Assembly: GCA_050633245.1 (NCBI GenBank)
Contig: JBOEGD010000019.1
Coordinates: forward strand, 1 to 24,477
Direction of reading: 5' to 3'
From: Calditrichia bacterium
GTDB taxonomy: Bacteria > Calditrichota > Calditrichia > RBG-13-44-9 > J075
Length of the DNA: 24,477 bases
Shown: piece after piece, positions 6,426-24,453 of the stretch
Position numbering within the stretch: the stretch's first letter is position 1
Layout: each line of letters opens with the position of its first letter
Made by a program: the position numbers and the translations under genes
The notes under the pieces: generated by a model
What the model saw: only the letters and a program-made list of their open reading frames with translations
What the model was told of the DNA's origin: nothing
The model's database searches: none

Positions 6426-6436
6426 GGATACTCAAT

Positions 6437-7582
6437 ATGGATTTTAACTGGACACCCCAACAGTTGGCTTTTAAACAATCTGTCATCGAATTTGCGCAGG
6501 ATAATCTGAACGAAGGCGTGAGAGATATGGACCGTGAGGGGCTTTTCCCCGCGGATAAATGGCGCAAATGTGCCGATTTTGGGCTACAGGGTATTTATTA
6601 CGATAAAGCGTTTGGTGGACAGGAACGCGATTTTCTCACCTCGGTCCTCGCAATGGAAGCAATGGGATATGGCTGTCGCGATAATGGTCTTACTTTTGGC
6701 TTAAATGCACAAATTTGGACGGTTCAATTGCCGATCTCTCGCTTTGCAACATATGATCAAAAGAAGCGTTTTTTAGAACCGATGTGTCGCGGCGAAATGA
6801 TTGGAGCCCATGCGATTAGTGAACCGGAATCAGGATCCGATGTGTACAGTATGAGCATGACGGCCACGAAAACGGAAGGCGGCTATCTCCTGAACGGGCG
6901 CAAACGATACATTACCTTCGGACCGATTGCCGATATGGCTCTGGTATTTGCCAGCACCAATCCCGACGTTGGGAAATGGGGCATAAGTGGATTTTTGGTA
7001 GACGCAAAATCTGATGGATACCGTTCACTACCTGTTCAAGAAAAGATGGGACTTCGCACCGTTCCTATTGGCGAACTCGATTTCAAGGACTGCTTCGTTC
7101 CCGAAGAAAACCGCCTTGGAAAAGAAGGCGCGGGAGTTAGTATTTCCAATAGCTCTTTGGAGTGGGAGCGTTGCTGTATTCTTGCCAGCCAGCTTGGTGC
7201 CATGGAGCGGCAGCTGGAGGAGGCGATTGCTTATGCTCGCGAACGAAAGCAGTTTGGTACGACCATCGGAAAATTTCAGTCGGTTTCAAACCGAGTTGTA
7301 GAAATGAAGCTAAGGCTCGAAACGGCACGACTTCTTCTGTATAAAGTTTCCTGGATGAAAGCCAATGATCAGCCCGCCATGCTTGAGTCCTCCCTACTGA
7401 AGCTGTACCTGAGTGAATGCTTTACCGAATCGAGCCTCGATGCAATTCGAATTCATGGTGGCAAAGGATATCTTAGTGAATTTGAAGTTGAACGCGATCT
7501 GCGTGATGCAATCGGTGGTGTTATTTATGGCGGAACTTCTGACATTCAGAAAAACATTGTAGCCCGGCTTTTGGGACTCTAA
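6437..7582 (+). CDS. Acyl-CoA dehydrogenase-fold aminoacyl-carrier-protein dehydrogenase (AnaB/PltE/RedW-like)
   Basis: MDFNWTPQQ start, GYGCRDNGLTF, AHAISEPESGSD, KMGLRT, LEWER (catalytic Glu position of AnaB-type enzymes), QFG..IGKFQSV and IYGGTSDIQ. Adjacent to a stand-alone A enzyme and a PCP. Confidence 0.9.
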   Translation: MDFNWTPQQLAFKQSVIEFAQDNLNEGVRDMDREGLFPADKWRKCADFGLQGIYYDKAFGGQERDFLTSVLAMEAMGYGCRDNGLTFGLNAQIWTVQLPISRFATYDQKKRFLEPMCRGEMIGAHAISEPESGSDVYSMSMTATKTEGGYLLNGRKRYITFGPIADMALVFASTNPDVGKWGISGFLVDAKSDGYRSLPVQEKMGLRTVPIGELDFKDCFVPEENRLGKEGAGVSISNSSLEWERCCILASQLGAMERQLEEAIAYARERKQFGTTIGKFQSVSNRVVEMKLRLETARLLLYKVSWMKANDQPAMLESSLLKLYLSECFTESSLDAIRIHGGKGYLSEFEVERDLRDAIGGVIYGGTSDIQKNIVARLLGL

Positions 7583-7595
7583 ACACTAGAAAATT

Positions 7596-9182
7596 ATGAC
7601 CTATTTAATTCAACATACAGTAGAAGAATCTGCACGCGTTCGCCCCGATCACGATGCCTTTCGAATGAATGGCGAAGGGGTAACGTATGCTATGTTGAAT
7701 GAGCGGGCTAATGCTCTGGCGGCTGAACTGATTCGACGTGGTGTTAAGCCACAAGATCGTATCGGTATCTTTATGAATAAATCGCTGCACTTGCCGGTTG
7801 CTGTCTACGGTATTTTGAAAGCCGGCGCTGCCTATGTGCCGCTCGATCCTGCTTCTGCGGTAGATCGTCTCGATTTTATTCTGCGCGATTGTGGTATTCG
7901 ATTTCTCATTACTCAAAAGAACAGGCTTCGGGTAATTAAGCAAATACCAGAAGTCGCCTCACGTCTCGATGGAATTATCGGGATTGATGTGCCCGAAGAG
8001 TTGGACATCGAAGGTATTCCTTGGAATCGTATTTATGAAAGTAATCACCCGGCGGTTCAGGTGAAATTAATGGAACGCGACCTCGCGTATGTTATGTATA
8101 CATCCGGTTCGACCGGAACGCCGAAAGGCATTATGCATACGCATTCCAGCTGTCTGGCCTATGCGAAACTTTCAGCAGCGCTTTATGATATTAAGCCGGA
8201 AGATCGATTGGCAAATCACTCACCATTGCACTTTGATATGTCTACTTTCGAATTCTTCTCCGGACCGCTTCATGGCGCAACCAGCGTGCTTATTCCGGAG
8301 GAATATACTCGCCTGCCTGCCAGTCTGTCGAAGTTGTTGCAAGACGAAAAAATGACGATTTGGTATTCGGTAACGTTTGCGCTGATGCAGCTTTTGTTGC
8401 GCGGTGTATTAGATGAGCGCAATCTTACCAGTTTGCGGTGGGTACTTTTCGGTGGAGAACCATTCCCCGTAAAATATTTACGTGAGCTTATGTTGAAGTT
8501 GCCTAATGCGCGCTTTAGTAATGTTTATGGTCCGGCGGAAGTAAACCAGTGTACCTTTTACCACCTTCCCTGCGTGCCCGATGAAAATCTTCCATCCGTG
8601 CCGCTTGGAGATATTTGGGAGAATACGACCGGCCTTATTGTAGATGAGGCAGATAATGAGGTTGCCGATGGAGAAGCAGGGGAACTGCTAATTCGCACCG
8701 GAACCATGATGCGCGGATATTGGGGCCGTCCCGACTTAAATGAGCGCGCATTTTTTGTTCGTTCACCCTTTCCGGATTACCGTGAAGTCTATTACCGAAC
8801 CGGCGACCTGGTGCAGCGCGCAGAGGATGGCAATATGCTTTTCCTCGGACGCAAGGATCGGCAGATAAAAACCCGTGGCTTCCGGGTAGAGCTTGATGAG
8901 GTTGAAGCAGTATTGCTTGCACATGCGGCCATTGAAGAGGCTGCTGTCTTCGCCGTTCCAGGCGATGAAGGCACGCGCTTTATTGAAGCTGCTGTTATCC
9001 TGAAAACAAATATGTCTGTAACGGTTAACGATTTAATTACAGAGGCTAAAAGCAAACTTGCACATTATGCCGTTCCAAGAACACTTCGAATTATGCAGGA
9101 ATTTCCAAGAACCGGGACGGGAAAAATTGACAGACTTGCCCTTCAGGAAAAGGCAACTTCAGAGAACATTGAGAAACGCTAA
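7596..9182 (+). CDS. Stand-alone adenylation enzyme (PltF/AnaC-like cyclic imino acid:PCP ligase)
   Basis: Motifs YTSGSTGTPKG, LHFDMS, IWYSV, LFGGE, NVYGPAE, YRTGD, GRKDRQIK and TGKIDR; no C or T domain. Specificity code read by eye is DMFYLGVQCK. Confidence 0.92.
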   Translation: MTYLIQHTVEESARVRPDHDAFRMNGEGVTYAMLNERANALAAELIRRGVKPQDRIGIFMNKSLHLPVAVYGILKAGAAYVPLDPASAVDRLDFILRDCGIRFLITQKNRLRVIKQIPEVASRLDGIIGIDVPEELDIEGIPWNRIYESNHPAVQVKLMERDLAYVMYTSGSTGTPKGIMHTHSSCLAYAKLSAALYDIKPEDRLANHSPLHFDMSTFEFFSGPLHGATSVLIPEEYTRLPASLSKLLQDEKMTIWYSVTFALMQLLLRGVLDERNLTSLRWVLFGGEPFPVKYLRELMLKLPNARFSNVYGPAEVNQCTFYHLPCVPDENLPSVPLGDIWENTTGLIVDEADNEVADGEAGELLIRTGTMMRGYWGRPDLNERAFFVRSPFPDYREVYYRTGDLVQRAEDGNMLFLGRKDRQIKTRGFRVELDEVEAVLLAHAAIEEAAVFAVPGDEGTRFIEAAVILKTNMSVTVNDLITEAKSKLAHYAVPRTLRIMQEFPRTGTGKIDRLALQEKATSENIEKR

Positions 9183-9195
9183 ACGGAGTATCATC

Positions 9196-9447
9196 TTGAC
9201 CATACAGAACAAGCTACAAGAATTTATTAATAAAGAGCTGCTATCCGGCAGCTTCGAAGTAGAAACAGATGAGAGTCTTCTTGCCGATGGCATGGTAGAT
9301 TCATTGGGAATGCTGCGCTTGGTAACCTTTATTGAGGAAACCTATGAAACACGCATTCCACCGGAAGATTTGATTATTGAAAATTTTCATACCATAGATG
9401 TGATTGCCGGTTATCTGACTCTGAAGGGGATACCTGCCGGTGAATAA
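9196..9447 (+). CDS. Discrete type II peptidyl carrier protein (PltL/AnaD-like)
   Basis: 83 aa acidic protein with LLADGMVDSLGML (phosphopantetheine Ser) and ENFHTI. TTG at 9196 follows GGAG. The track start at 9058 overlaps the upstream gene. Confidence 0.9.
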   Translation: MTIQNKLQEFINKELLSGSFEVETDESLLADGMVDSLGMLRLVTFIEETYETRIPPEDLIIENFHTIDVIAGYLTLKGIPAGE

Positions 9448-9948: not shown

Positions 9949-12324
9949 ATGAAGACCTTAGTGAACGGTTTATGGCTGCTTCTATTAAGCGCCATGGTGT
10001 CTTTTGTATTTGCCCAAACGGGAACAATTAAGGGAGAAATTATCGATATTGATAATAGCGAAGAACTTCCCGGTGTAAACGTCTTGCTTGAAAATACGGT
10101 TCTTGGTGCCAGCAGCGCCCTCGATGGCAGCTTTGAAATTTTTCAAGTTCCGGTCGGAAATTACCAGCTGGAAGCAAGGCTGTTGGGCTACACCACAATT
10201 CGAAAAACAATTGCTGTTGCGGCAGGTGAAACTGTAACTCTTGACATCGAAATGAAAAGCAGCCCCATCGATATGAACGAAATCCTTGTCGAAACAGAAC
10301 GCGTCTATTCAGCGGCTTCATCTAAGGCCGTTCGAGCGTTTGATATTAAGATTCGACCAACGCGATCTGCTCAAGAACTTCTACAAATGGCACCGGGAGT
10401 TTTTATTGCCCAGCATGCCGGAGGCGGTAAGGCCGAGCAAATATTTATCCGCGGCTTCGATGCTGATCATGGAACAGATGTAAATATCTCTCTCGATGGA
10501 GCGCCATCAAATATGATTTCGCATGGACACGGACAGGGCTATGCCGATCTTCACTATATTATAGCTGATGTCGTGGAAACTATCGATGTAAAAAAGGGAC
10601 CTTATTTTGCTGAATATGGCAACCTTGCAACCGCAGGTGCCATGCAGTTTCATACCAAGGAACACATCGACAATAATCTGGTGCGCTTTGAAGGTGGCGA
10701 ATTTAATACGCGTCGCTTAACAACGATGTATCAAATTCCGTCGAGTGGCGAACACCAGAATGCCTATCTTGCCGGACAGTTTTATGCTACTGATGGTGCC
10801 GTAGAATCACCACAGGATTTTGATCGCTTCAATGTCTTTGGTAAGCTGCACACACATCTTTCCAATAATAGCAAGCTGACGCTGTCTGCAAGCGCATTTA
10901 GCTCTGCCTGGGACGCCTCGGGACAAATTCCGCAGCGTGCAGTGAACAGCGGTCAGATTGGTCGGTTCGGCACAATAGATGATCTTGAAGGTGGAACAAC
11001 CAGTCGCCAGGATTTGAATCTTCAGTATTTGATCAACGGCAAAAACAATAGCGAGTTGCTGATTCAAACGTATACTACAAATTATGACTTCAAGCTGTTC
11101 TCGAACTTTACCTTCTTTCTGGATAATCCGGAAAATGGTGATATGATCGAGCAAACAGATGACAGAAGCGTATTTGGTCTGAACAGTCACTATAAGTTTA
11201 GCCATAGTGCTGGTGCTTTCCTGGCAGTTGCAAAAATGGGCGGCGGTTTTCGGGCAGATGATATTGCTGTTTCGCTTTGGCAGTCGCCGAATCGCACGCG
11301 CAGTAATGCACTGGTAGATGCCGATATCCTTGAGCGTAATTTTTTCCTTTGGGTTGAGGAAGAGTTTTTGTTCTCTCCACGCTTTCGCATGCAGTTGGGT
11401 TTACGCGGAGACTATTTTACCTATAATGTTGAAGATGCCCTTGATGGCGTTGATAATGGCCTGCCGCATGCTTCCGGCTTTGCCAAGCAGAGCATTGTAT
11501 CACCAAAGTTGAATATGGTCTTCAGTCCTGTAAATAATTTCGACTTGTTTGCAAATGCCGGAACCGGTTTTCACTCGAATGATGCCCGCAATGTGGTTCT
11601 AAGCGAACGAATCAGTCAGATGACAACCAGCTTTCAGCGAGCAGGGCTGAGTAATAGCGAGATTGCTGATACGCTGACAGCGATGAATTTCGATCCGGAC
11701 CAGCTAAATGTAGAAACCTTACCGCGCGCTGTTGGAGCCGAAATTGGCTTCCGAACATTGCTTGGCGGACGAATTAATTTCTCCGCTGCGGCGTGGTGGC
11801 TAGACCTGGAACGCGAATACGTTTATATCGGTGACGCCGGCAGCACTGAACTAAGTGACCCGACCGTTCGTTACGGCGTGGATATGGAAGCACGTGCGAA
11901 CCTTTCTACCTGGATGTGGGCTGATGCCGATGTGAATATATCGGAAGGAAAGGTAAAGAATGCTCCGGATGGTGAAGATTTTATTGCCTTGGCACCGAGA
12001 ATTACCTCAACGGGCGGTTTAACGGCTGTTCATCCCTCCGGATGGGAAGGCAGCTTGCGCTATCGTTATCTTGACGATCGACCTGCGAATGAAGACAATA
12101 GCGTTGTTGCAGAAGGATATACGGTAATAGATTTGTCCGCCGGATATCGTATTGGGCCCTTCAAGCTGCACGGTTGGGTTGAAAATCTACTCGATGTAGA
12201 TTGGAATGAAGCACAGTTTGATACAGAATCCCGCCTGCGTGGCGAAACACAAGCTGTTTCCGAGATTCACTTTACTCCCGGAAACCCGCGAAATGTTCGT
12301 CTTGGCGTAAGCTACCTGTTTTAA
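9949..12324 (+). CDS. TonB-dependent outer-membrane receptor with an N-terminal carboxypeptidase-regulatory-like domain
   Basis: Signal peptide (VFA|Q), GTIKGEIID...LPGVNV domain, plug motifs AQHAGGGKAEQIFIRGFDADHGTD, NMISHGHGQGYADL and VKKGPY, and barrel end PGNPRNVRLGVSYLF with terminal Phe. AAGGA RBS. Confidence 0.95.
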   Translation: MKTLVNGLWLLLLSAMVSFVFAQTGTIKGEIIDIDNSEELPGVNVLLENTVLGASSALDGSFEIFQVPVGNYQLEARLLGYTTIRKTIAVAAGETVTLDIEMKSSPIDMNEILVETERVYSAASSKAVRAFDIKIRPTRSAQELLQMAPGVFIAQHAGGGKAEQIFIRGFDADHGTDVNISLDGAPSNMISHGHGQGYADLHYIIADVVETIDVKKGPYFAEYGNLATAGAMQFHTKEHIDNNLVRFEGGEFNTRRLTTMYQIPSSGEHQNAYLAGQFYATDGAVESPQDFDRFNVFGKLHTHLSNNSKLTLSASAFSSAWDASGQIPQRAVNSGQIGRFGTIDDLEGGTTSRQDLNLQYLINGKNNSELLIQTYTTNYDFKLFSNFTFFLDNPENGDMIEQTDDRSVFGLNSHYKFSHSAGAFLAVAKMGGGFRADDIAVSLWQSPNRTRSNALVDADILERNFFLWVEEEFLFSPRFRMQLGLRGDYFTYNVEDALDGVDNGLPHASGFAKQSIVSPKLNMVFSPVNNFDLFANAGTGFHSNDARNVVLSERISQMTTSFQRAGLSNSEIADTLTAMNFDPDQLNVETLPRAVGAEIGFRTLLGGRINFSAAAWWLDLEREYVYIGDAGSTELSDPTVRYGVDMEARANLSTWMWADADVNISEGKVKNAPDGEDFIALAPRITSTGGLTAVHPSGWEGSLRYRYLDDRPANEDNSVVAEGYTVIDLSAGYRIGPFKLHGWVENLLDVDWNEAQFDTESRLRGETQAVSEIHFTPGNPRNVRLGVSYLF

Positions 12325-12446: not shown

Positions 12447-15400
12447 ATGCTCGACAAGATAAAAAATTACGATGAACAGATTCAGGCTGCTGGTAAGCTC
12501 AATAATGTTGCCGATGTTTCGAACCTTACTCGCAGCCAGCTTCTGATTTGGACCGGGCAAAAGCTCAGCCCGAAGCTTCCGCTATACAATATGGTAATGA
12601 CCTATCAAATCGATGGTCAACTGAACCCCGATGTTTTTCAACAAGCCTTTCAGATTCTGCTTCAAAAAAGCGATGCCATGCGCACGATCTTTAGCGAACA
12701 AGATGGTATTCCACAACAAAAGGTGCTGGACTACTGTGCATTTGACCTGGACGTAATAGATTTTACGGAGTCTGCAGATCCCGCAGCTTCTGCCGTAAGC
12801 TGGTCACAGCAGCGTGCTCGACAACCTGTTGATATTTCAAAAAGCCTTTTCGACAGCGTGCTGTTAAAACTCTCTGAAGAAAAATGGATGTGGTATTACA
12901 ACCAACATCATTTGATGAACGATGGGTGGTCAGTTACACTTGTATTTCGCCGCGTCTCGGAATATTACCAGGCCGTTCTGGCAGATCAGATCGAGGGCTT
13001 GCAAGATCTTCCGCAATATTGCAACTATCGTTCTTATGAAAAAGAGAACAGCAATTCACCCTCTTTTAAAAAGTCTATCGCTTTTTGGAAAGACAGAGCT
13101 GTTTCTAATAATGGTCCGCTGGCACTGTATGGAAAAACACCCGACGTTCGTTCTACCGCCGGTAAGCGCATTTACGCTGAGTTGAATGAAGAGCAAAGTG
13201 CCGCCTTGCGCGAAATCGCATTGGAAGCGGGCATTCGTTCCTTTACACTCGACCTTTCCCTTTATTATATATTTTCTACTTTGCTTACGGCCGTGTTGGC
13301 TCGAATCAGTGGTGAAAAGCATATCGCATTTGGCGCACCGGTTCACAATCGTTCGTCTGTTGATTTTAAAGAGACGATTGGACTTTTTATTGAAATGTTT
13401 CCAATGAAACTGGATCTGGAGAGTGGTGAAACTTTTCGCAGCCTGTTAAAAAAAGTTGCTCTGGAAACGCAGGACTTTCTGCGCCATAGTGGATCGGGTA
13501 TAACCACAGCCGAGCTGAACAACTCCTTTAACGTAACGCTTAACTTTATAAATGCTTCATTTGGCGAGTTTGCCGGATTAAAAACGCGATCGACCTGGGT
13601 GCATCCCGGAGACTTTGATAAGGGAAATAGTTTCAGTCTATTGGTGCACGACTTTGACGCAACCGGAAAATACCAGCTGCATTTCGATTTGAACACGGAT
13701 ATTTTTTCCGCACAGGATGAGCACAGGATTGTTGACGATTTTATGACCATCCTGAAGGCATTTATTAATGATCGTGAAATAGTTATAGATGACATCAAGA
13801 TGCTTTCTGATAGGCAAACGGTTGAACTCTTGAACGCATACAATGAGACAGCCAGACCTGTGGCCGATGGAACCATCGTTGATTGGTTTAATAATCATGC
13901 TGCTGCGCAGCCAAACGCCATCGCAGCATGTTGCAATGAGCAAAGCCTGAGTTACTCTCAACTTCAGAATTCAACGAAACAGCTCGCAAATTACTTTTCA
14001 GAGGCTGGTATCAAAAGCGGTGATATGGTTGCGATTTCACAGACGCGTTCTTTTGAGCTCTTGAAATCTATTTGGGCGATTACTAAGATTGGAGCTGCAT
14101 TTGTACCGCTGGATCCATCTTTGCCGAAAGTGCGAAAAGAATATATTTTGCAGGACTCAGGCAGTAATTGGCTTGTTTGCAATAAGGGGTTGGCTCCGGC
14201 AGAGAATGCAGACTTGAGAGTAATCGATCCGGAAGAATCGAGAGACGCGATTTCCTTATGTGAAACGACATTCCCGAAACGTCACATATCGGCACAAGAC
14301 CTCGCCTATATTCTATATACATCCGGCTCTACTGGTAAGCCAAAAGGCGTCCGGGTAAGCCACGGAGCTATCGCTAATTATTTGAACTGGGCAAAGCGAA
14401 CCTACATGCCAGTCAGCGGTATGAGAATGGCAGTTTTTACAACTATTTCTGCAGATCTTACCCTAACCTCGCTTTTGTTGCCATTCATTTCCGGCGGAAC
14501 TGCTGTAGTTTATCCCGAAGAGGGAAGTGGCACAGATCTTTCTATTGTACGGGTTGCGCAAGACGATGCGGTGGATATAGTTAAATTGACCCCTTCCCAT
14601 CTTGCTCTTGTTAAGGACAAACTGCTTGCTGCTACATCAATTAATACTCTGATACTTGGTGGTGAAGAGCTAAAAACAGCTAACGTGCGTGAGCTCGCTG
14701 CCAACGGAAAAATCGTTTACAATGAATATGGGCCTACCGAAGCAACTATTGGATGTATGATTTATCGCTATGATCCGGAAGAGGATGGTGACTCTTCTGT
14801 GCCGATTGGCAGTCCAATTGACAATACCCAGATCTACCTGCTGAACGAGCAGCTTCAACCCGTTCCACTTGGCACACCCGGTGAGCTCTTTATTGGCGGA
14901 GCAGGGCTTGCAGATGGCTACCATAAGCGTTTTGAACTGACACAAGAACGGTTTGTTGATAATCCATTTAACAAAGGAACACATCTGTATCGTAGCGGCG
15001 ATTTGGCGCGTTTTAATAATGGGCAGCTGCAGTACCTCGGTCGTAACGACGAGCAGCTGAAGCTCGGTGGGTTCCGTATCGAACCGGGCGAAATCGAAAC
15101 CGCATTGGGGAAAATCCCCGCGATTTCAAATGTTGTTGTCGATGTTGTTGACGTTCAGCCTGGATCTGTGGATTCGCGTCGCTCAGAAAAACGACTGATT
15201 GCATTTTTTACCGCTGATGATAAGCTGGAAGACAGTTTAATGCGCAGTGCTTTGGCAAAAGAAATTCCACATTATATGATTCCTGCGCACCTGATCCAGC
15301 TGGATGAAATGCCGCTAAATGCAACCGGTAAAATCGACAAATTGGCACTGCCGGAACTGGTTACTCTTTTACAGCCTCACAGCAGTCAGCACACGCCGGC

Positions 15401-18400
15401 GCAAAACCAACTCCAGAAGGAATTAACAGACATTTGGGAAGGTGTTTTGGGCACCTCGCCAATTGGCATTGAAGACAACTTCTTGGCACTTGGTGGTGGC
15501 TCGCTACACGCTGTATCTGTTATTGCCCAAATTATTCTGCGTTATCAAATAACATTGCCGCTGCAAACGCTTTTTGAGACATCTACGATTAAAGAATTAT
15601 CCGAACGAATTGAAACCGCACAGCAGCTGGAAACCGACGAGCTTGCAACTGGTTCTGCAACGCAAATTATAGCGCGTAGTACGGATGCGTCGATACCGCT
15701 TTCCTCCGCCCAGCGCCGAATTTGGTATCTTCAGTCTATTCAGCCGGAAAGCTACGCATATAATATGCACCAGGCTGTTCTGCTTGATGCACCGCTTGAT
15801 GTTGCCAGGTTGAATGCCGGAGTTGCGTCTCTGGTAAATCGCCATGAAATCTTGCGAACCTACTTTGTTGAACAAAAAACAGAATTGTTGCAGCGCATTG
15901 CCGATTCCGTTGATAATGTCTTTATAGAAGTCGATCTTTCTGCCGAAACGTCGGACAAAAATTCGCTGGTCAGACGGTATGCCGAAAGCCAGGCACAACG
16001 TACGTTTGCTTTGAATAAGCTGCCTCTATGGAATTTAACTTATCTCCATTTGCCGGATAACAGCTGCGCACTGGTCCTGATTATGCACCACATTATTTCA
16101 GATGAGTGGTCGGTGGATGTCTTTTGGCAACATCTTGCCGCGTTCTACCAGGACAATAATATGTCGGCCACAGCGAATCTTGTTCAATATGCAGACTACA
16201 GCATTTACGAGCAGGAATGGCTGCAAACATCCAGCTGTAGTTCTCAGCTTGACTACTGGAAAGGAATGCTCGAAACGCAGCTGGAACCATTGCAACTAAC
16301 TCATCGCACCGCCTCTTCGAATGCAAATCGCGGAGCACAAAAACAGCTGAATATCCCTAAAGATATTCTGACAAAACTAAAGCTGCTCGGAGGCGAAGAG
16401 TCTGCATCGTTGTTTATGGTTCTGTTTGCAGCCTATTCAATCTTATTACAAAAGCTAAGCGGGCAATCCGATTTTTGCATCGGCACGCCAGTAACACTGC
16501 GGGAAAGACCAGAGTTACAGAATGTCATAGGTTTTTTCCTGAATACATTGCCGCTAAGAGCCTCTGTTGAGGAAAATGACAGCTTTCGTGAACATCTGAA
16601 AAAGTCTCGTGCGATATGCTTGGAAAGTTTTGCCAACAAAGATGTGCCTTTTGACCTGCTGGTTAAAGAGCTAAGGCCAAACGTCGCAGGTGGCGAAAAC
16701 CCCTGGTTTCAAAGCATGTTGGTTGTACAAAATGACGGGACATCTCAATTGAGATTCGATGATAATTCTGCCTCGGCGATGCAAATTGACAGTGGTGTCT
16801 CGAAGTTTGACTTTACTCTGTTTATGCAGGAAGGGGAAGAGTCCGCAATCGCAATGGTTGAATACAATACGGATATGTTTGTGGCCGATTTTATAGAGCA
16901 ATTGTTGCAGAGTTGGTCTACTTTACTACAGGAAATTGTAGCGCAACCAGATGCTCAAATTCAGACTATCAATCATTACTCTAAAGTCCAAATCGACCAC
17001 CTCTTGGCTTTGGGATGTGGGCCGGGTGTGCGTATTCCCGCAGAACCTGTTCATATACTTATCGCAAAACAAGCCAAAGCAAATCCAACTTCGATTGCTG
17101 TTCGTTATGATAAACAGACTCTCAGTTATGGGGAGTTAAATGAACGTGCAACGGGGTTAGCGAATGGATTAGAAGTGAATTCCAGCGGCGTGCGAATCGG
17201 TATTTTGCTCGAGCGATCTGTCGATTATCCTGTGGCAATTTTGGCAGTATTGAAAACGGGGGCGGCTTATGTGCCGCTCGATCCGGCATATCCGGCAGAC
17301 CGTCTGGAAATGATTATCCAGGATGCCGGGATTAAAACCGTTATATCAAGCGCCGAACATGGCGATAAGGCTCGCGGAGCTTCTATAAAGATTATTGATG
17401 TGCAGGCTAAAATAACAAACTCGGCCCCTGTAGAATCAGCACAGCAAAACCTTGACAGCGACGCCTATATTATTTATACCTCCGGCTCAACCGGCAAACC
17501 CAAAGGCGTTCCGATTACGCATCGCAATCTGCTTTACAGCACGTTTGCGAGACCGCAATTTTATGAAAATAAGCCAGCAGCCTATCTGCTCCTTTCCAGC
17601 TTTGCATTCGACAGCTCTATTGCCGGAATATTCTGGACATTGACAGAGGGTGGAACACTATGTCTACCGGATAATGATCACTATATGGAACCTGATTATC
17701 TGACGACATTTATTGCCGACAACAACATAAGCCATATTCTGGCAATTCCTTCTTTTTATCAGCAGTTAATTCATTTCCAGCCAGATAGATTGCTTTCTCT
17801 GCAAACCGTAATTGTTGCCGGAGAGGCGCTTCACCACAGTTTAATTCATGAGCATCAAAAGCTGCTTCCCAAAACACGTTTGGTAAATGAATACGGGCCA
17901 ACGGAAGCTACCGTTTGGGCAACTGCGGCTGATGTTACAAATCTGCCTGAAAGTAATCGTGTACCAATTGGAAAGCCAATTGGATCGACACAGCTATATG
18001 TTTTGGATATGAATGAAAACCTCGCGGTTCCCGGAGTTCCCGGAGAGCTCTTTATCGCCGGGCCGCAGGTTGCCGCAGGTTATGTCAACAGAACCAAATT
18101 AACCAGCGAACGATTTATACATGATCCGTTTCTAAAAAATGGCGTGATGTATCGAACTGGCGATCGCGTTTGCTGGCGAGGAGATGGGCAGCTGGATTTC
18201 CTGGGTCGTGTAGATGGACAAGTGAAGATTCGTGGACATCGGATTGAACCGGAAGAAGTTGAAGCGGTTGTTGCGCAATTAAGTGAGGTCGTTGAGGTTG
18301 CTGTTGTTCCAACTCAGCGGACCAATGCCTCCGCGATTCGGACTGAAAGACTTCAGTTGATTGAACAGCAAGACTGGTTAACAGTGGCAGAACGCTTCGG

Positions 18401-19310
18401 CAGCGAGCGTCTGGAAAAGCTGATTAGTGAAATTGAAGGTATTTCTTCTGAGCAGGCGCTTCAAGAACTGCCGGAGATATTTCGAACTGAGAACTCGACA
18501 GATGATTTGGAACCTGCCTATCGAAAACGGCATCGCGATGCGGATATGGCTATCGAGTTGGCGCTACTTCAGGAAGGATTTATTCGCCCCCCAAGAGATG
18601 CGCAGCGCAATTGGATGGTTGGGCAGTGGATAGCTGAAGCAACTGATGATTTAAGACATCTTCATGAACTGGCCAAGCGTTTTGTCTCTGGTGAGACCGA
18701 GCATGGCGAGATCTATGATGAGAAGGTCGACGTGCTTGCTGATGAAGAAATAATGGAAGACTGGCAAACTCCAGTGATGAAGGCAATGGCCAAACAAGTT
18801 ACCGAAGCGCATGGCGATGTGCTGGAAATCGGTTTTGGCATCGGCGTTAGTGCGACCTTTATACAAGAGCAGGGTGTTGCATCGCATACAATTGTGGAGA
18901 TGAACGAATATATCGCCAACACGCTTTTCAAAGATTGGCGTGCCGGTTACCCCAAGTCTGATATTCGATTGGTTCTGGGGCGCTGGCAGGATGCGCTGGA
19001 AAAACTGAAAACGTACGACGGCGTATTTTTTCACGCTGTCCCGATGGATGAAGAAGAATTTATGAACGAAATGGTTGGCAGTATCACCTTTGCGGAGCAT
19101 TTTTTCCCGGTGGCTGCCAAGCTGTTAAAACCAGGTGGCGTGTTTACGTATATGACGACCGAGGTTGACTCGCTGAGCAGAAGACATCAGCGTGCATTGT
19201 TTAAGCATTTCTCCTCCATAGCGTTGGAAATTCAGCCGCTGACGATACCTGAAGATACCAAAGACTGGTGGTGGGCCGATTCTATGGTTGTTGTGAAGGC
19301 TACCAAATAA
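12447..19310 (+). CDS. NRPS: C(starter-like)-A(Asn)-T-C(LCL)-A(core, lacking A9/A10)-methyltransferase (GAMT/Rmt2-like)
   Basis: C1 HHLMNDGWS; A1 code DLTKIGEIGK (Asn-type); T1 DNFLALGGGSL; C2 LSSAQRRIW/HHIISDEWS. A2 has motifs through A8 (GRVDGQVKIRGHRIE) but no A9/A10. C-terminal IMEDWQTPVM and SAM motif VLEIGFGIG. GGAG RBS. Confidence 0.95.
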   Translation: MLDKIKNYDEQIQAAGKLNNVADVSNLTRSQLLIWTGQKLSPKLPLYNMVMTYQIDGQLNPDVFQQAFQILLQKSDAMRTIFSEQDGIPQQKVLDYCAFDLDVIDFTESADPAASAVSWSQQRARQPVDISKSLFDSVLLKLSEEKWMWYYNQHHLMNDGWSVTLVFRRVSEYYQAVLADQIEGLQDLPQYCNYRSYEKENSNSPSFKKSIAFWKDRAVSNNGPLALYGKTPDVRSTAGKRIYAELNEEQSAALREIALEAGIRSFTLDLSLYYIFSTLLTAVLARISGEKHIAFGAPVHNRSSVDFKETIGLFIEMFPMKLDLESGETFRSLLKKVALETQDFLRHSGSGITTAELNNSFNVTLNFINASFGEFAGLKTRSTWVHPGDFDKGNSFSLLVHDFDATGKYQLHFDLNTDIFSAQDEHRIVDDFMTILKAFINDREIVIDDIKMLSDRQTVELLNAYNETARPVADGTIVDWFNNHAAAQPNAIAACCNEQSLSYSQLQNSTKQLANYFSEAGIKSGDMVAISQTRSFELLKSIWAITKIGAAFVPLDPSLPKVRKEYILQDSGSNWLVCNKGLAPAENADLRVIDPEESRDAISLCETTFPKRHISAQDLAYILYTSGSTGKPKGVRVSHGAIANYLNWAKRTYMPVSGMRMAVFTTISADLTLTSLLLPFISGGTAVVYPEEGSGTDLSIVRVAQDDAVDIVKLTPSHLALVKDKLLAATSINTLILGGEELKTANVRELAANGKIVYNEYGPTEATIGCMIYRYDPEEDGDSSVPIGSPIDNTQIYLLNEQLQPVPLGTPGELFIGGAGLADGYHKRFELTQERFVDNPFNKGTHLYRSGDLARFNNGQLQYLGRNDEQLKLGGFRIEPGEIETALGKIPAISNVVVDVVDVQPGSVDSRRSEKRLIAFFTADDKLEDSLMRSALAKEIPHYMIPAHLIQLDEMPLNATGKIDKLALPELVTLLQPHSSQHTPAQNQLQKELTDIWEGVLGTSPIGIEDNFLALGGGSLHAVSVIAQIILRYQITLPLQTLFETSTIKELSERIETAQQLETDELATGSATQIIARSTDASIPLSSAQRRIWYLQSIQPESYAYNMHQAVLLDAPLDVARLNAGVASLVNRHEILRTYFVEQKTELLQRIADSVDNVFIEVDLSAETSDKNSLVRRYAESQAQRTFALNKLPLWNLTYLHLPDNSCALVLIMHHIISDEWSVDVFWQHLAAFYQDNNMSATANLVQYADYSIYEQEWLQTSSCSSQLDYWKGMLETQLEPLQLTHRTASSNANRGAQKQLNIPKDILTKLKLLGGEESASLFMVLFAAYSILLQKLSGQSDFCIGTPVTLRERPELQNVIGFFLNTLPLRASVEENDSFREHLKKSRAICLESFANKDVPFDLLVKELRPNVAGGENPWFQSMLVVQNDGTSQLRFDDNSASAMQIDSGVSKFDFTLFMQEGEESAIAMVEYNTDMFVADFIEQLLQSWSTLLQEIVAQPDAQIQTINHYSKVQIDHLLALGCGPGVRIPAEPVHILIAKQAKANPTSIAVRYDKQTLSYGELNERATGLANGLEVNSSGVRIGILLERSVDYPVAILAVLKTGAAYVPLDPAYPADRLEMIIQDAGIKTVISSAEHGDKARGASIKIIDVQAKITNSAPVESAQQNLDSDAYIIYTSGSTGKPKGVPITHRNLLYSTFARPQFYENKPAAYLLLSSFAFDSSIAGIFWTLTEGGTLCLPDNDHYMEPDYLTTFIADNNISHILAIPSFYQQLIHFQPDRLLSLQTVIVAGEALHHSLIHEHQKLLPKTRLVNEYGPTEATVWATAADVTNLPESNRVPIGKPIGSTQLYVLDMNENLAVPGVPGELFIAGPQVAAGYVNRTKLTSERFIHDPFLKNGVMYRTGDRVCWRGDGQLDFLGRVDGQVKIRGHRIEPEEVEAVVAQLSEVVEVAVVPTQRTNASAIRTERLQLIEQQDWLTVAERFGSERLEKLISEIEGISSEQALQELPEIFRTENSTDDLEPAYRKRHRDADMAIELALLQEGFIRPPRDAQRNWMVGQWIAEATDDLRHLHELAKRFVSGETEHGEIYDEKVDVLADEEIMEDWQTPVMKAMAKQVTEAHGDVLEIGFGIGVSATFIQEQGVASHTIVEMNEYIANTLFKDWRAGYPKSDIRLVLGRWQDALEKLKTYDGVFFHAVPMDEEEFMNEMVGSITFAEHFFPVAAKLLKPGGVFTYMTTEVDSLSRRHQRALFKHFSSIALEIQPLTIPEDTKDWWWADSMVVVKATK

Positions 19311-21301
19311 TGCAGAATGGAAAACGAATGAAACAGGTCGAAAATATATCATTTCGGGAACGCATTGCCGCGCTTTCGGATGCTCAAAAGCTTCTTCTTG
19401 CTCAAAGGTTAAACCTACCCGCTCAACAATCGGGCTCTTTTGACAGCCTTGCCGCGTTTATCGTTCCGACAAATATAGCGGATGTTGCTGCTATAAAAGA
19501 GCAGTTAACGCACCGCTTACCGGATTATATGCAGCCGGATATTGTGCTGATCGACAATATGCCGCGCACGCCTAACGGGAAAATTAATCGCAATGCTCTG
19601 CTTGAAATACCGAAAAGCAAGCTGGATAACGGGTCGGAGACAACTGGTCTCAGTGCTGCTCAGGTAACGCTAAGAGATATCTGGAAGACTGTTCTTGCCG
19701 TTGACGCCGTTTCGATTAATGATAATTTCTTTGAGTTGGGCGGCGATTCAATTCGCGCTATGCAGGTTATTTCACGCGCGCGTTCTGCCGGGATCGATAT
19801 TTCTGTACGCCAATTGTTTGCACAACCAACAATTGCACAGCTAATAACTTCTGAACCGGCTTTGCAAAAAGTTGAGACGATGAAATCTGTAAGCGGTGAC
19901 GTTTTGCTATCGCCGATTCAGCGCTGGTTTTTTCGCGAAAACTTTGCCGAAAGTCATCACTGGAACCAATCGGCTTTGCTCACTTTACATTCCGAAAATA
20001 GCGCTGCCGAGTTATCTGAAGCGCTTCAAACAATCGTTAAGCACCATGAAGCTTTTCGTATCCATTTTGAAGAGAACGATAAGGAATGGTGGCAAATTGC
20101 TTCGGCACAGCTGACGGAGCTGCCGTTCAAAGAGTGTGTGCATCCGGGAGAAGGTAAACTGGAGGCGTTTATCCGGCAGGCGCAGTTAGAACTTGATTAT
20201 CGCATGCCGGGTAAAGCATGGCAGGCAATCTATTTGGACGGACAGGAGAAGCGGCCCAGTTTATTACTGCTGGTTATGCATCACCTATTGATTGATGGCG
20301 TTTCCTGGGCAATCGTTTTAGAAGATCTTTCAGAAGCCATTGAAGGAAAACGACAAGGTAGAACACCTGTGCCGCTGAGTACGTCGACAACTTTACCTGA
20401 ATGGAACGAACGCTTACAGCAGTTTGCCAATCAGCGCGAAACATACTTGCAAGTAGCGCAATGGTTGCATTGTTTTGAAGAAACCAGCGGACAAATTCCG
20501 CGAAAGGAAAATGCCGATCTACAAAAAAACACCGAGGGCAACAGCAAGACAGTTATGCTTGAACTGTCCCGGGAGGATACAGCGCTTTTGCTTGGCGACT
20601 GCACGTCTGCCTATCGTGCGAGCCTAAATGAATTCCTTTTATCAACATTGTTTGCCAGCCTTACCGACTGGTCTGGAAATACCAAATTAAAGATTAATAT
20701 GGAAGGGCATGGACGTGAAGAAGCTGTGGGTGCAGATGCCTCTAGAGCAGTCGGCTGGTTTACCAGCTTTTTCCCAATCACAACAGCTTTCCATGCTGAT
20801 GCTGAAATTAATGATATACTCACTGGCGTTAAAAATGCTCTTAACGATATTCCTGAGAACGGTATCGCAGTTGCCGCTGCACAGTATTTGGGGCAATCTG
20901 AAAAGCTCCGCTCTGCGATTGATAAAGCCATGAAAAATGATGTGCTTTATAACTATCTGGGCACGTTGGATGGCGATTATGGAAATCACTGGGACTATAA
21001 ACTTATTAGCAGCCGCAGCCCGAAGGCACATCGTAGTCACCTGCTCGATGTAACCGCATATATTTTAAAAGATTGCCTGCAGCTTCACTGGGAGTTCTGT
21101 CCGGACCTTCATGATGAGGAAGTAATTCGAAAGCAGGCTGAGCAACAGCTTAATTATTTACAGACCATTATAGAAAATCGACATGCTGCGAGCACCAACT
21201 ATACGCCGGCAGACTTTCCTCTTGCCGGACTGGATCAACATGGATTACAGCAGCTTGGAGAGCTGCTAAAAGACTTGGATAGCAGGGGAGAGGATAAGTG
21301 A
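19310..21301 (+). CDS. NRPS: docking-like helix-A(C-terminal subdomain A9/A10)-T-E-COM
   Basis: TAATG coupling gives ATG at 19310 (alternative 19328). A9/A10 are LPDYMQP and RTPNGKINRNAL; T is DNFFELGGDSI. E motifs are LSPIQRWFF, HHLLIDGVSW, EGHGRE, RAVGWFT and YNYLG; COM donor is YTPADFPLAGL. Confidence 0.93.
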   Translation: MQNGKRMKQVENISFRERIAALSDAQKLLLAQRLNLPAQQSGSFDSLAAFIVPTNIADVAAIKEQLTHRLPDYMQPDIVLIDNMPRTPNGKINRNALLEIPKSKLDNGSETTGLSAAQVTLRDIWKTVLAVDAVSINDNFFELGGDSIRAMQVISRARSAGIDISVRQLFAQPTIAQLITSEPALQKVETMKSVSGDVLLSPIQRWFFRENFAESHHWNQSALLTLHSENSAAELSEALQTIVKHHEAFRIHFEENDKEWWQIASAQLTELPFKECVHPGEGKLEAFIRQAQLELDYRMPGKAWQAIYLDGQEKRPSLLLLVMHHLLIDGVSWAIVLEDLSEAIEGKRQGRTPVPLSTSTTLPEWNERLQQFANQRETYLQVAQWLHCFEETSGQIPRKENADLQKNTEGNSKTVMLELSREDTALLLGDCTSAYRASLNEFLLSTLFASLTDWSGNTKLKINMEGHGREEAVGADASRAVGWFTSFFPITTAFHADAEINDILTGVKNALNDIPENGIAVAAAQYLGQSEKLRSAIDKAMKNDVLYNYLGTLDGDYGNHWDYKLISSRSPKAHRSHLLDVTAYILKDCLQLHWEFCPDLHDEEVIRKQAEQQLNYLQTIIENRHAASTNYTPADFPLAGLDQHGLQQLGELLKDLDSRGEDK

Positions 21302-24300
21302 AGCTGGAAAATGTAACTGATATATATCCGCTTGCACCGCTGCAAGAGGGGATTCTCTTCCATGCAATCGCCGATAAAAACGCCGGACATTATCACCAAC
21401 AGTTCTGTTGCGTTTTGAAAGGTGAATTCGATACTGCGCGCTTTAAGAAAGCCTGGCTCAGCGTTATTCAAAACCATGATATTCTCCGAAGCATCTTCGT
21501 TTGGCAAGGTCTGGAAAAGCCGCTTCAAATAGTGCGGAAAGACGTGCAGCCTGTTTGGATCGAAGACGATTGGACAATGAATGATCACAATGTGCAAGCA
21601 GAAAAGCTCGATATGTATCTTTCCGATGACCGTCTTCGCGGCTTCGATGTGCGCTACGCACCACTCATGCGCTTTAAGTTAGTGCGATTGAATAAAGATC
21701 GCCTGCAATTTGTCTGGAGCTTTCATCATTTACTGTTGGATGGCTGGTCTATTCCAATACTTTGGTCAGATGTGCTGACAGCTTATGATAGCCTTGGTGA
21801 CACAAAAACTGCTACTTCCCGGAAACCGCAGCAGTATCGCGCGTTTATCTCGTGGATGATGCAGCAAGATAAGTCTGATGCTGAACTGTTCTGGCGAAGT
21901 CATTTTAAAAATTTAACCTCGCCAACCTCACTGGAGGGTTTGCCAAAACTTAATAAAGCGGAAAACCCGGGGCGCACAGCGGTTCAGTTTACGCTGGAGG
22001 AAACGCGTAAACTCGAAAAGGTAGCTTCTGCAAACAGTTTGACGCTGAATAGCGTGGCACAAACCATCTGGGCTTTTTTGTTGAGCGTCTACAGTTATCA
22101 GGACGACGTTGTATTTGGAACTACTGTTGCAGGAAGACCGCTTAACCTTTCCGGAGTGAATGAGATGGTGGGGCTGTTTATCAATACGCTGCCGATGCGT
22201 GTCAAGCTGGATGGGACACGTTCGCTGGTAGAAAATATGAAGGCGGTGCAGGATACCCAGCTTGCCATGCGACAGTACGAACAGAGCTCGTTACTGGATA
22301 TTCAGGGCTGGAGCGAAGTGCCACGTGGAGAGCAGCTTTTCGAAACGGTATTTATTTATGAAAATTATCCCTCTTCATCCAATGATGTTGGGAAAATTTA
22401 TTCGGTGGATGAAGTGACGGTTCATGAGCAAACACATTTTCCTCTGAGCATTCTTGTTGGAACGGTTCCGGAATTTCGTATAGAAATTGCCTGGAACGGC
22501 AAGCGAATTGGCAGGGTTTTTTCCGAACAGATTGCACGGCATTTTAAACATGTTCTTATGCAGTTTCTGGACAATCCAGGAATAGTTGTCGATGAAATCG
22601 TTGTTCCGCTAGAGGATGAAGCACATCGTTTGTTAAATGAGCTGAATAAAACACAACGATCTTTTCCTGTTATATCTTCCATAACGGAAATTCTTGAAAA
22701 GCAAGCAGCAACACAGCCCGAAACAATAGCTGTCCGGTTTCAGGATGATCGGCTTAGTTACGCTGAACTGAATGATCGAGTCACCCGCCTCGCTGTTTTC
22801 CTACAGCAAAAAGGGGTAAATCAGGAAGATAAGCTGGGAGTGTTTTTAGAGCGCTCCGAGCAGATGCTGATTGCTACGCTTGGTATTCTCAAAGCTGGCG
22901 CCGCTTATATTCCTCTGGATCCGGCTTTCCCAAAAGATCGACTTTCTTACATGGTTGAAGATGCCAGTATTACTACTCTGCTAACGCAGGAAAACCTGTT
23001 GCCTCACCTGCCTTCTCAAAATGTTCAAACTTTTTGCCTGGATAAAGATTGGTCTGAGATTGCCATGGCTGGGCCTGCTGATTGGAAGCCCCAATCGACT
23101 GCCTCAGACTGCGCTTATGTAATTTATACTTCCGGTTCAACCGGCAGGCCAAAAGGCGTTCAGGTTTCTCACAATTCTCTGTTGAATTTTCTGTTCAGCA
23201 TGAAGGAACAGCCGGGGTTTGCACCGCAGGATCGTTTACTAGCGGTGACAACGCTATCTTTTGATATCTCAGGATTAGAGCTTTATCTACCGCTTATCTG
23301 CGGTGGAACCGTCGATATCGCAGCAACAGCTATGGTTTCTGATGGACAGGCTTTAGCCAACCGTTTAGACGAAAGCGGGATTACCGTTATGCAGGCCACG
23401 CCTGCTACCTGGCGACTCTTACTGGAAAGTGGTTGGCAGGGTAAGCGTGATCTAAAAATTCTCTGTGGTGGCGAGGCGTTTCCGGATGACCTGGCGCAAG
23501 AGCTTCTACCTCTTTGTAATGAAGTCTGGAACATGTATGGCCCGACTGAAACAACAATCTGGTCTGCCATTGCACGAGTAAAGCCTGATGAGGCGATTCA
23601 TATCGGTCGGCCGATTGCAAATACGCAGATTGTTATTCTGGATAAGCGTGATAAGCTGGCACCATTCGGAGTTGCCGGAGAACTGTGTATTGGTGGAGAC
23701 GGTGTTGCCTTGGGATATCTAAATCGACCAGAGCTTACCAATGAGCGCTTTATTGAAAATCCTCTGTCTGGTGAAGGAGAGATTCTTTATCGAACCGGAG
23801 ATTTGGCGCGCTACTATCCCGATGGACGCCTGGAGTTTCTGGGGCGCTTCGATTATCAGCTGAAGCTGCGTGGTTTCCGCATTGAACCTGGCGAGATTGA
23901 GGTTTCATTAATGGAGCACGCCGATGTTGACCGTGCGGTTGTGGTGGTAGGAGATTTTGGTGCGAATGATAAGCGGTTAGTTGCTTATCTCGTGTGCGCA
24001 AATTTACCCGAGACCGGAGAGCTACGTAAGCATTTGCGTTTAAATTTGCCTGAGTATATGATTCCTGCTCATTTTATTCAGCTCGATGCCATTCCGCTAA
24101 CGCCAAATAACAAAATAGATCGCAACGCATTACCCAATGTTGCGTCTGTCGATAGCAAAACAATCTCTGATGAAGTTGCCCCTCAAAATTCGCTGCAGGA
24201 ACAGCTTCTGGATATTTGGAAGACGGTGCTGAAGCAACCAGCAATTGGAATCACCAACAATTTCTTCGATCTCGGTGGACACTCACTGCTGGCCGTTCGT

Positions 24301-24453
24301 CTTATCAGCGAAATCAATGCCGCCTGTCAATCCAACCTGACGATAGCAACTCTTTTCGAATCCCCAACCGTTGAAGGACTTGCACTCGCACTGGAGTCTG
24401 CACCGAGCGACACCACGATAGATTTTTCCGAGATTACAGAAGACGCCATCTAA
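21298..24453 (+). CDS. NRPS: C(DCL)-A(Gly)-T
   Basis: GTGA overlap. DIYPLAPLQEGILFH and WSFHHLLLDGWS mark a DCL-type C domain, consistent with the upstream E. A code DILQLGMIWK (Gly); T is NNFFDLGGHSLL. Short acidic tail and no TE. Confidence 0.95.
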   Translation: MKLENVTDIYPLAPLQEGILFHAIADKNAGHYHQQFCCVLKGEFDTARFKKAWLSVIQNHDILRSIFVWQGLEKPLQIVRKDVQPVWIEDDWTMNDHNVQAEKLDMYLSDDRLRGFDVRYAPLMRFKLVRLNKDRLQFVWSFHHLLLDGWSIPILWSDVLTAYDSLGDTKTATSRKPQQYRAFISWMMQQDKSDAELFWRSHFKNLTSPTSLEGLPKLNKAENPGRTAVQFTLEETRKLEKVASANSLTLNSVAQTIWAFLLSVYSYQDDVVFGTTVAGRPLNLSGVNEMVGLFINTLPMRVKLDGTRSLVENMKAVQDTQLAMRQYEQSSLLDIQGWSEVPRGEQLFETVFIYENYPSSSNDVGKIYSVDEVTVHEQTHFPLSILVGTVPEFRIEIAWNGKRIGRVFSEQIARHFKHVLMQFLDNPGIVVDEIVVPLEDEAHRLLNELNKTQRSFPVISSITEILEKQAATQPETIAVRFQDDRLSYAELNDRVTRLAVFLQQKGVNQEDKLGVFLERSEQMLIATLGILKAGAAYIPLDPAFPKDRLSYMVEDASITTLLTQENLLPHLPSQNVQTFCLDKDWSEIAMAGPADWKPQSTASDCAYVIYTSGSTGRPKGVQVSHNSLLNFLFSMKEQPGFAPQDRLLAVTTLSFDISGLELYLPLICGGTVDIAATAMVSDGQALANRLDESGITVMQATPATWRLLLESGWQGKRDLKILCGGEAFPDDLAQELLPLCNEVWNMYGPTETTIWSAIARVKPDEAIHIGRPIANTQIVILDKRDKLAPFGVAGELCIGGDGVALGYLNRPELTNERFIENPLSGEGEILYRTGDLARYYPDGRLEFLGRFDYQLKLRGFRIEPGEIEVSLMEHADVDRAVVVVGDFGANDKRLVAYLVCANLPETGELRKHLRLNLPEYMIPAHFIQLDAIPLTPNNKIDRNALPNVASVDSKTISDEVAPQNSLQEQLLDIWKTVLKQPAIGITNNFFDLGGHSLLAVRLISEINAACQSNLTIATLFESPTVEGLALALESAPSDTTIDFSEITEDAI

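Follow-up and report, generated by a model that had tools for sequence, protein, structure and literature searches.

Adenylation (A) domains of non-ribosomal peptide synthetases (NRPSs) that are interrupted by a methylation (M) domain between core motifs a8 and a9 have been described as single chains with NRPS-type M domains, and the passages found in the survey of Lundy et al. (2020, PMC8341866) contain no split form and none of the terms 'histidine', 'guanidin', 'truncated' or 'separate protein'. A literature search on split A domains returned one relevant paper, that on the corallorazine synthetase of Corallococcus coralloides B035 (PMC11342130, 2024), as described in which Crz1 has the order C-A-T-C-A-nMT (C, condensation domain; T, carrier domain), with the nMT placed after A8 and followed by the stop codon, and motifs A9 and A10 open Crz2; Crz1.2 alone was inactive with glycine, and a 1:1 mixture with Crz2 gave almost quantitative turnover. 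This study focused on a 24,477-nt stretch of DNA (hereafter, the window) from a Calditrichia bacterium (assembly GCA_050633245.1, contig JBOEGD010000019.1), in which the second A domain (A2) of an NRPS is divided between two consecutive genes, ORF1 and ORF2 (ORF, open reading frame), with a methyltransferase (MT) region ending the first of them. We consider it probable that the two halves form a real, evolutionarily conserved and functional trans-split A domain of a histidine-type NRPS module.

By published description, rather than by the Crz1 sequence or the supplements, ORF1 resembles Crz1 in its C-A-T-C-A-MT order and its stop after the MT, and in both systems A9 and A10 start the next ORF ahead of a T domain. 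There are also clear differences. The A2 domain of Crz is described as loading glycine and its MT as a type I N-MT, whereas the window has a histidine code and an MT resembling guanidinoacetate N-methyltransferase (GAMT); Crz2 is T-TD, whereas ORF2 is T-E (E, epimerisation domain) with further modules after it; a three-gene form is seen among the relatives of the window, with none described for Crz, and the word 'docking' is absent from the main text of that paper, according to which the gene-cluster family of Crz occurs mostly in actinomycetes, Serratia and Pseudomonas. The first-pass annotation of the window had stated that no characterised example of such a split was known, a claim overtaken by Crz1/Crz2. 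The split A domain itself is, therefore, not the first of its type, the precedent having been proven biochemically; novelty lies in the family of the MT, in the histidine-type module and its conserved pair of helices, in the three-gene form and in how broad the family is. That annotation had also likened the locus to the interrupted A domains of the KtzH and TioS types; the comparison holds for the position of the MT, at the same A8-A9 loop, where its presumed target is whichever residue the A domain around it loads, but not for the rest, as the polypeptide here invariably terminates behind the MT, which belongs to another family (GAMT-like) and is a free-standing gene in most relatives (16 loci).

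The break after the methyltransferase

ORF1 (12447-19310, 2287 aa, stop codon TAA; the features mapped from ORF1 to ORF3 lie on the forward strand) encodes C1-A1-T1-C2-A2, a helical segment and the MT, and Pfam returned the domain order C-A-T-C-A. The large subdomain of A2 and the first part of its small subdomain (Asub) occupy 17064-18311, with a Pfam AMP-binding match at aa 1540-1879, core motifs A3 (SGSTGKPKG), A5 (NEYGPTE), A7 (YRTGD) and A8 (GRVDGQVKIRGHRIE, aa 1920), and the hand-mapped specificity code DSALIAEVWK. A8 is followed by the strand EVVEVAVVP (aa 1947-1955, nt 18285-18311), after which the A fold is left; the 45-aa A8 piece submitted on its own gave no Pfam match. The chain continues with the helical segment (18324-18482, aa 1960-2012) and ends with the MT (18516-19307), the start of which was set by alignment with free-standing MTs.

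The two genes are joined by a TAATG sequence (19308-19312), in which the ORF1 stop (19308-19310) overlaps the first possible in-frame ATG of ORF2 at 19310. A second in-frame ATG at 19328 is the start of the 657-aa database copy P0004, and both starts are compatible with the alignment of relatives. An N-terminal helix (19310-19438, aa 1-43) is followed by the remainder of the A2 small subdomain, or Asub' (19439-19612), comprising the second hairpin strand LAAFIVP (19448-19468), A9 LPDYMQP (19517-19537) and A10 TPNGK (19568-19582), the PNGK of which holds the catalytic lysine. Pfam AMP-binding_C matched ORF2 aa 46-91 over profile positions 28-76 of 76 (E 1.5e-4; 23.1 bits, slightly below the 24.5 cut-off), and full-length NCBIfam models placed ORF2 aa ~31-99 on the last ~70 residues of one-chain A domains, e.g., DltA 430-501 of 505. 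In a word-indexed search, residues 1-110 of ORF2 retrieved nothing beyond the protein of the window itself (1 match among 438 candidates). The T domain of module 2 lies at 19667-19846 (Pfam PP-binding, P0002 aa 134-193), and then comes a condensation-fold domain (19895-21193; Pfam) which, from its place after T and before C and its match to TIGR01720, is probably an E domain. The sequence, Pfam and NCBIfam thus bear out the first-pass description of an A2 split between two TAATG-coupled genes, including its positions for the helices and motifs.

A pattern scan of species-representative genomes, run with the MT region, gave 17 related loci. The metagenome-assembled genomes (MAGs) in which they lie represent at least eight groups at phylum level and bear the labels Saprospiraceae, Bacteroidota, Nitrospirales, Planctomycetaceae, Methylococcaceae, Granulosicoccaceae, Gammaproteobacteria, Longimicrobiales, Pyrinomonadaceae and Aquimarina. 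The search of homologous clusters proposed at the outset has thus recovered the same split widely. In all 17 the MT frame closes at a conserved terminus of the ...DSMVVVKAVK type, and after its stop a new ORF supplies helix, strand, A9, A10 and T; the A8 residues are invariant (17/17 sequences), as are G-K of A10 (16/16). The contig of L013 stops just inside the downstream ORF, and in L004 this ORF apparently has a non-ATG start. An exhaustive HMMER search with the MT over 1.84 billion representatives yielded 1185 matching sequences at E <= 1e-3, including 142 with E below 1e-30. The best 150 of the 1185 were listed, and 128 of the 149 non-self rows were tallied, the 21 left out being short fragments and two distant tandem-MT proteins. 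The match reached the end of the MT in 125 of the 128, and every one of these 125 proteins stops within 20 aa of that point (104 within 3 aa); among the tallied proteins, the MT is preceded by an NRPS portion longer than 400 aa in 94, and 23 are seemingly free-standing. The same cut in many bacterial phyla argues for a real and widespread design, and these comparisons support a real and old split following the MT that is under selection.

Closer to the window, the MT was present in five of the 41 genomes searched among its relatives, the window's own included. In the other four, which belong to the same family as the window, the A-MT open frames measure 1175-1255 aa, and where the downstream DNA could be read an Asub'-T gene follows at a distance of ~190 nt (G003) or ~700 nt (G014, in which another ORF lies between). 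A profile of A2 was also matched against 86 genomes from the same phylum, which gave 499 matches, 150 of them listed. Within this listing no split A domain without an MT was seen, matches beginning at the N-terminal helix occurred only in G000, G003 and G014, which are MT loci, and the longer partial matches inspected, L040 and L026, were ordinary uninterrupted A domains.

The window comes from a draft assembly of 59 contigs, and L015, from an Aquimarina MAG, has a frameshift within the MT ~60 codons before its end (6590-6800), which could be either a pseudogene or an assembly error. Such facts would suit an explanation of the break as a sequencing or assembly error, or as a recent pseudogenising mutation. 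Against this are the identical break in 17/17 loci and 125/125 tallied representatives, the catalytic motifs kept in both halves, and the proper start codons and conserved N-terminal sequence behind the break. The reading of the junction itself (19300-19330), the point at which an indel might have fused the two ORFs, was compared with contigs of sequencing runs from related strains rather than reads of this strain, with no run sharing more than 0.26 of the sampled words and no RNA run listed. Over 18800-19800 the window aligns at ~93% identity, and with 0 gaps, to two 30-kb contigs from runs X3 and X4; a 592-nt contig of run X1 spans 19165-19754, likewise with 0 gaps, and none of the 40 substitutions listed for these contigs (33 further ones are unlisted) falls within 19266-19362. 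Given the conservation of the break and these three independent, indel-free contigs, a sequencing artefact was rejected, and an error or recent mutation of any kind is hardly credible.

A different possibility is that programmed ribosomal frameshifting or read-through produces a single A-MT-A-T chain, so that the split is only apparent. The ORF2 frame is open for 14 codons 5' of its ATG in the window (from GTG 19268; 19268-19310), overlapping the end of the MT, and is similarly open in several other loci, and the downstream ORF lies in the -1 frame relative to the MT in most loci, both of which would be expected of a frameshift. However, the frame is +1 in L005, L010 and L017, and the junction itself takes several forms: an ATGA overlap in seven loci, TAATG-type in three as well as the window, and gaps of 1-73 nt in the others, to which the longer spacings of G003 and G014 can be added. 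In addition, the conserved C-terminal residues of the MT reach right to the stop codon and would be lost by an earlier shift. The varying frame relation and spacing make programmed frameshifting very unlikely, though no search aimed at a conserved slippery site was made, and we return to two separately translated halves as the probable state.

The methyltransferase and its predicted substrate

The best relative of the MT in the PDB by sequence is GAMT (3orh, E 1.2e-17). Foldseek with the MT model likewise gave 3orh_A (E 1.6e-14, TMt 0.68; the GAMT entries ranged over TMt 0.68-0.76), and the listed ranks hold GAMT, spermidine synthases and small O-MTs, with no NRPS-embedded MT among them. Language-model features placed the MT nearest to Atlas clusters carrying PF27704 (score 0.98), and no NCBIfam family matched it. 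The glycine-rich S-adenosylmethionine (SAM) motif of this GAMT-like, PF27704-type class I methyltransferase is kept. Judged by sequence and modelled fold, the MT is GAMT-like and not an NRPS-type M domain. With GAMT (3orh, 1xcj, 1khh) it shares sequence, predicted fold and an MExW motif near the N-terminus. It differs in being attached to, or encoded beside, an NRPS module, in having an extra N-terminal hairpin and helix, and, in the alignment with 3orh, in having a histidine in place of the aspartate of the GAMT ...YDTYP segment, a residue that we take to be catalytic in GAMT. A T-bound residue is the more likely substrate, rather than guanidinoacetate. Searches for GAMT together with NRPS found no relevant literature, and in the papers that could be searched the MT family has so far been unlinked to NRPSs.

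The ten specificity positions were mapped by hand from the core motifs, and a code of the form DS[A/V]L[I/V/M/S]AEVWK was obtained for all 21 of the split modules examined. In the relevant part of a published compilation (PMC12283262), DSALIAEVWK, the string found in A2 of the window, is named among His-activating domains, and DILQLGMIWK is named for Gly. The A2 code thus matches a published His code, and the module is predicted to load histidine. If so, it probably installs a methylated D-histidine-type residue. No relevant literature was found for methyl-histidine together with NRPS, and in the falcitidin preprint D-His is present and the word methyltransferase absent.

It could be argued that A2 of ORF1 is a dead remnant and that the T domain of ORF2 is loaded by some other adenylating enzyme, a candidate being the free-standing A protein encoded 3 kb upstream (7596-9182). 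That enzyme, however, sits in an apparently separate starter cassette, its neighbours being an ornithine-cyclodeaminase-like gene, a gene for an acyl-CoA dehydrogenase and one for a small carrier protein of its own. Moreover, the motifs and code of A2 and the A9 and A10 motifs of ORF2 are conserved across phyla, and a dead domain would not keep these. There is little to recommend this alternative, and a working A2 assembled from both proteins is preferred.

The two helices and a proposed reassembly of the A domain

Short helical elements at the C-terminus of one protein and the N-terminus of its successor are known from the class 2 docking domains of cis-AT polyketide synthases (PKSs) and PKS-NRPS hybrids (CurG/H, CurK/L, Bamb_5925/5924; PMC9113145). 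Those elements join acyl carrier protein to ketosynthase between modules, as dimeric eight-helix bundles, whereas the junction considered here lies within an NRPS A domain. The first-pass annotation had pointed to docking-like helices on both sides of the break and proposed an internal docking pair. On the upstream side, the acidic helix LEKLISEIEGISSEQALQEL (aa 1989-2008, nt 18411-18470) lies within the helical segment of ORF1, which was recognised from alignments, a profile and the helices of an AlphaFold 2 (AF2) model. This model, running from A8 to the end of ORF1 (mean pLDDT 85.6, pTM 0.72), has helices at model residues 41-65, 67-79 and 82-88 followed by a confident MT fold, with block pLDDT values of ~77-84 across the second and third helices. 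On the downstream side, the N-terminal helix of ORF2 contains the motif RIAALSDAQKLLLAQRL at 19361-19411.

Wherever the MT is a gene of its own (16/16 loci), the protein encoded upstream stops 67-98 aa past A8, and its tail has a motif of the form L..L..L....AE.LL...E, which aligns with ...ERFGSERLEKLISEIEG... of the window. In most relatives, then, the A-core protein physically terminates in the acidic helix. A profile of this C-terminal helix matched 38 of 151 database proteins (i-E <= 0.01), always 265-295 aa from the C-terminal end, directly before the MT and nowhere else. The downstream N-termini share the motif L..RI..LS..QR.LL...L, which also occurs at the true N-termini of other NRPS subunits, ahead of C domains (three by profile; 11 of 80 by a loose regular expression), a recurrence that would be expected of a general docking element. 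In the 16 three-gene loci the two elements thus stand at the extreme C- and N-termini of consecutive subunits, and in the window the N-terminal element is terminal and the C-terminal one internal. The conservation of both helices is a case of moderate strength by sequence comparison, and that part of the earlier proposal stands, along with the placement at true termini in three-gene loci.

The pairing of the helices was examined by co-folding the helix segments alone, each with its own alignment, and an ipSAE of 0.50 was obtained in 3/3 runs, where the three controls scored 0.00-0.02 (best, 0.02), with a partner pLDDT of 63 and at least 92% of contacts agreeing between runs. The verdict on pairing was one of weak support. 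On the calibration set, 58 of 80 solved complexes and 2 of 110 mismatched pairs attained the mark, but a score of 0.60 or below was seen for no more than 7 of those 80 complexes, and for both of the mismatched pairs that passed. It might instead be that the helices do not dock at all, the two proteins being held together by beta-strand complementation of the small subdomain and contacts of the MT, and the helices serving as a linker or lid of the MT unit. The weak co-fold result, the unlikeness of the C-terminal profile to any solved docking domain, and the fused form, in which the MT follows directly behind the helices and AF2 models the whole as one chain (at the pTM given above), are all in line with such an arrangement, and the conserved basic N-terminus of the free-standing MTs (M-T-R-R-I-K-R type) could itself bind the acidic helix. 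It is countered by the 16 loci in which the helical segment is part of the upstream A protein, at its extreme C-terminus, and not of the MT gene, by the N-terminal motif at ordinary subunit N-termini ahead of C domains, and by the near-zero scores of the co-fold controls. We think this alternative unlikely, while giving it appreciable weight, and lean towards a docking role for the two helices.

In the arrangement that we favour, protein 1 would supply the large subdomain together with the A8 hinge region and the small subdomain's first beta-strand, and behind these the helical docking element and the GAMT-like MT, and protein 2 the complementary helix, the second strand, A9, the A10 lysine and the T and E domains. 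The small subdomain would be rebuilt non-covalently through strand pairing, aided by the helix pair, and the rebuilt A domain would then load the T domain of ORF2. The MT would methylate the tethered residue before the E domain acts, and epimerisation of the methylated residue would come last. By analogy with Crz1/Crz2 we infer that the ORF1 and ORF2 proteins complement each other in trans, and we likewise infer helix-to-helix docking, histidine as the substrate and the order of these steps.

Several observations weigh against this picture or parts of it. The co-fold support for the helix pair is weak and the input alignments were made in this analysis. Searched against the PDB, the C-terminal helix profile gave only chance-level matches with no recognisable relative, and the best match of the N-terminal profile, 6tdd_A (45 aa, a class 2 polyketide synthase docking domain), was not significant at E 0.12. 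In the window the C-terminal docking element is internal, with ~275 aa of MT behind it, and its accessibility is assumed. The specificity code was mapped by hand with a single check, namely that the A3 domain of ORF3 yields DILQLGMIWK, the published Gly code. Finally, P0077 and P0114 are the only proteins that continue past the MT into the gene behind it, but only by way of codons that are out of frame, the sign of a frameshift.

Two further observations touch these elements. The sequence matched in 6tdd_A also occurs in 6tdn_A (positions 57-83), identified in a review (PMC9113145) as the class 2 docking fusion Bamb_5925/5924. An out-of-frame VVGR..G..G.Q-like peptide of 19268-19310 recurs in the frameshift-fused P0077 and P0114.

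Three-gene loci, family breadth and neighbouring genes

In 16 of the 17 related loci the MT is a separate gene of ~262-265 aa, giving the order C-A(to A8)-helices | MT | helix-A9-A10-T. The start codon of the free-standing MT was ATG in 14 of the 15 examined and GTG in L014, and the gene is often ATGA-coupled to the upstream gene as well. By comparison of these sequences, the MT in the window's lineage is fused behind the helical segment that ends the upstream protein in most relatives. A FastTree phylogeny of 130 MT domains (31 rows were skipped by the motif filter, and the database proteins scored as 'alone' may include cut gene calls) required at least eight changes between fused and alone states, three of them forced by well-supported branches, against a mean of 29 for shuffled states. 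The A|MT boundary has, on this count, opened or closed several times. While this boundary varies, the boundary between the MT and A9 is never closed. In the AF2 model of the end of ORF1 the last element is a core beta-strand, and it could be speculated that an MT fold whose end cannot return to the A loop would account for the constant break.

Taken further, these findings would describe a large, cross-phylum family of two- and three-piece A domains, in which the GAMT-like MT chain must end at its last beta-strand and a dedicated helix pair rebuilds the small subdomain, a generalisation that we offer as tentative. If it is true, the three-gene loci could be seen as living intermediates toward 'interrupted' A domains, in which a free-standing tailoring gene has been captured between docking-linked halves, and the family would provide a portable natural split point within A domains for NRPS engineering. 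Annotation pipelines and surveys seeking A...M...A within a single polypeptide will overlook the family, reporting a truncated A domain upstream and an orphaned T domain downstream, and more than 140 protein clusters at 50% identity match the MT at E < 1e-30. A naturally tolerated intra-A split with its own short helical connectors is of direct use for dividing large NRPS genes into exchangeable parts, and the variable A-MT and always-broken MT-A9 boundaries give a testable picture of the entry of tailoring domains into the A8-A9 loop. The finding should be of solid interest to NRPS specialists.

In some loci the downstream partner is only ~200-237 aa long and consists of helix-Asub'-T: L005 (6806-7519), L017 (6770-7429), L019 (3155-3865) and L024, which is the G003 locus (1477-2145). 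The small partner of L019 ends with a further acidic ...LSDEEVEAMLKE tail, so that in this type a carrier protein and half an A subdomain make up a small subunit that stands alone, bounded on either side by docking-like elements.

A second kind of insertion was seen in the module upstream of the split one in L003 (3-3200) and L013 (1-3294), and also in L010 (2-3085) and L016 (2-3115). There, a one-chain A domain carries an insert of ~330 aa between A8 and A9/A10 whose similarity is to PP-loop ATPases and amidotransferases rather than to a methyltransferase. Pfam QueC was matched at E 1.9e-4 (L003) and 2.2e-5 (L013), and the L013 insert matched in the PDB the N-acetyl sugar amidotransferase 8wex (E 7e-4) and an NAD synthase domain, 8cnz (E 2.8e-3); the inserts of L010 and L016 are of the same size and gave no Pfam match. 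The PP-loop-like insert may represent an undescribed kind of interrupted A domain.

Downstream of ORF2 in the window, ORF3 (21298-24453) encodes C-A-T, with the A-domain code for glycine noted above. The boundary between ORF2 and ORF3 (21200-21330) pairs differently from that between ORF1 and ORF2, the end of ORF2 being ...YTPADFPLAGLDQHGLQQLGELLKDLD... and the start of ORF3 VKLENVTDIYPLAPLQEGILFH, and we liken it to an E-to-C COM-type junction; ~13 of 80 large MT-bearing proteins begin like the start of ORF3. Upstream of ORF1, four genes in a row (5355-9447) encode an ornithine-cyclodeaminase-like protein, an acyl-CoA dehydrogenase, the free-standing A domain (7596-9182) and a small ORF with the carrier serine motif DSLG, and these may form a proline-to-pyrrole-2-carboxyl starter cassette. 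A TonB-dependent receptor is encoded between this cassette and ORF1 (9949-12324), and it may hint at a metal-binding product.

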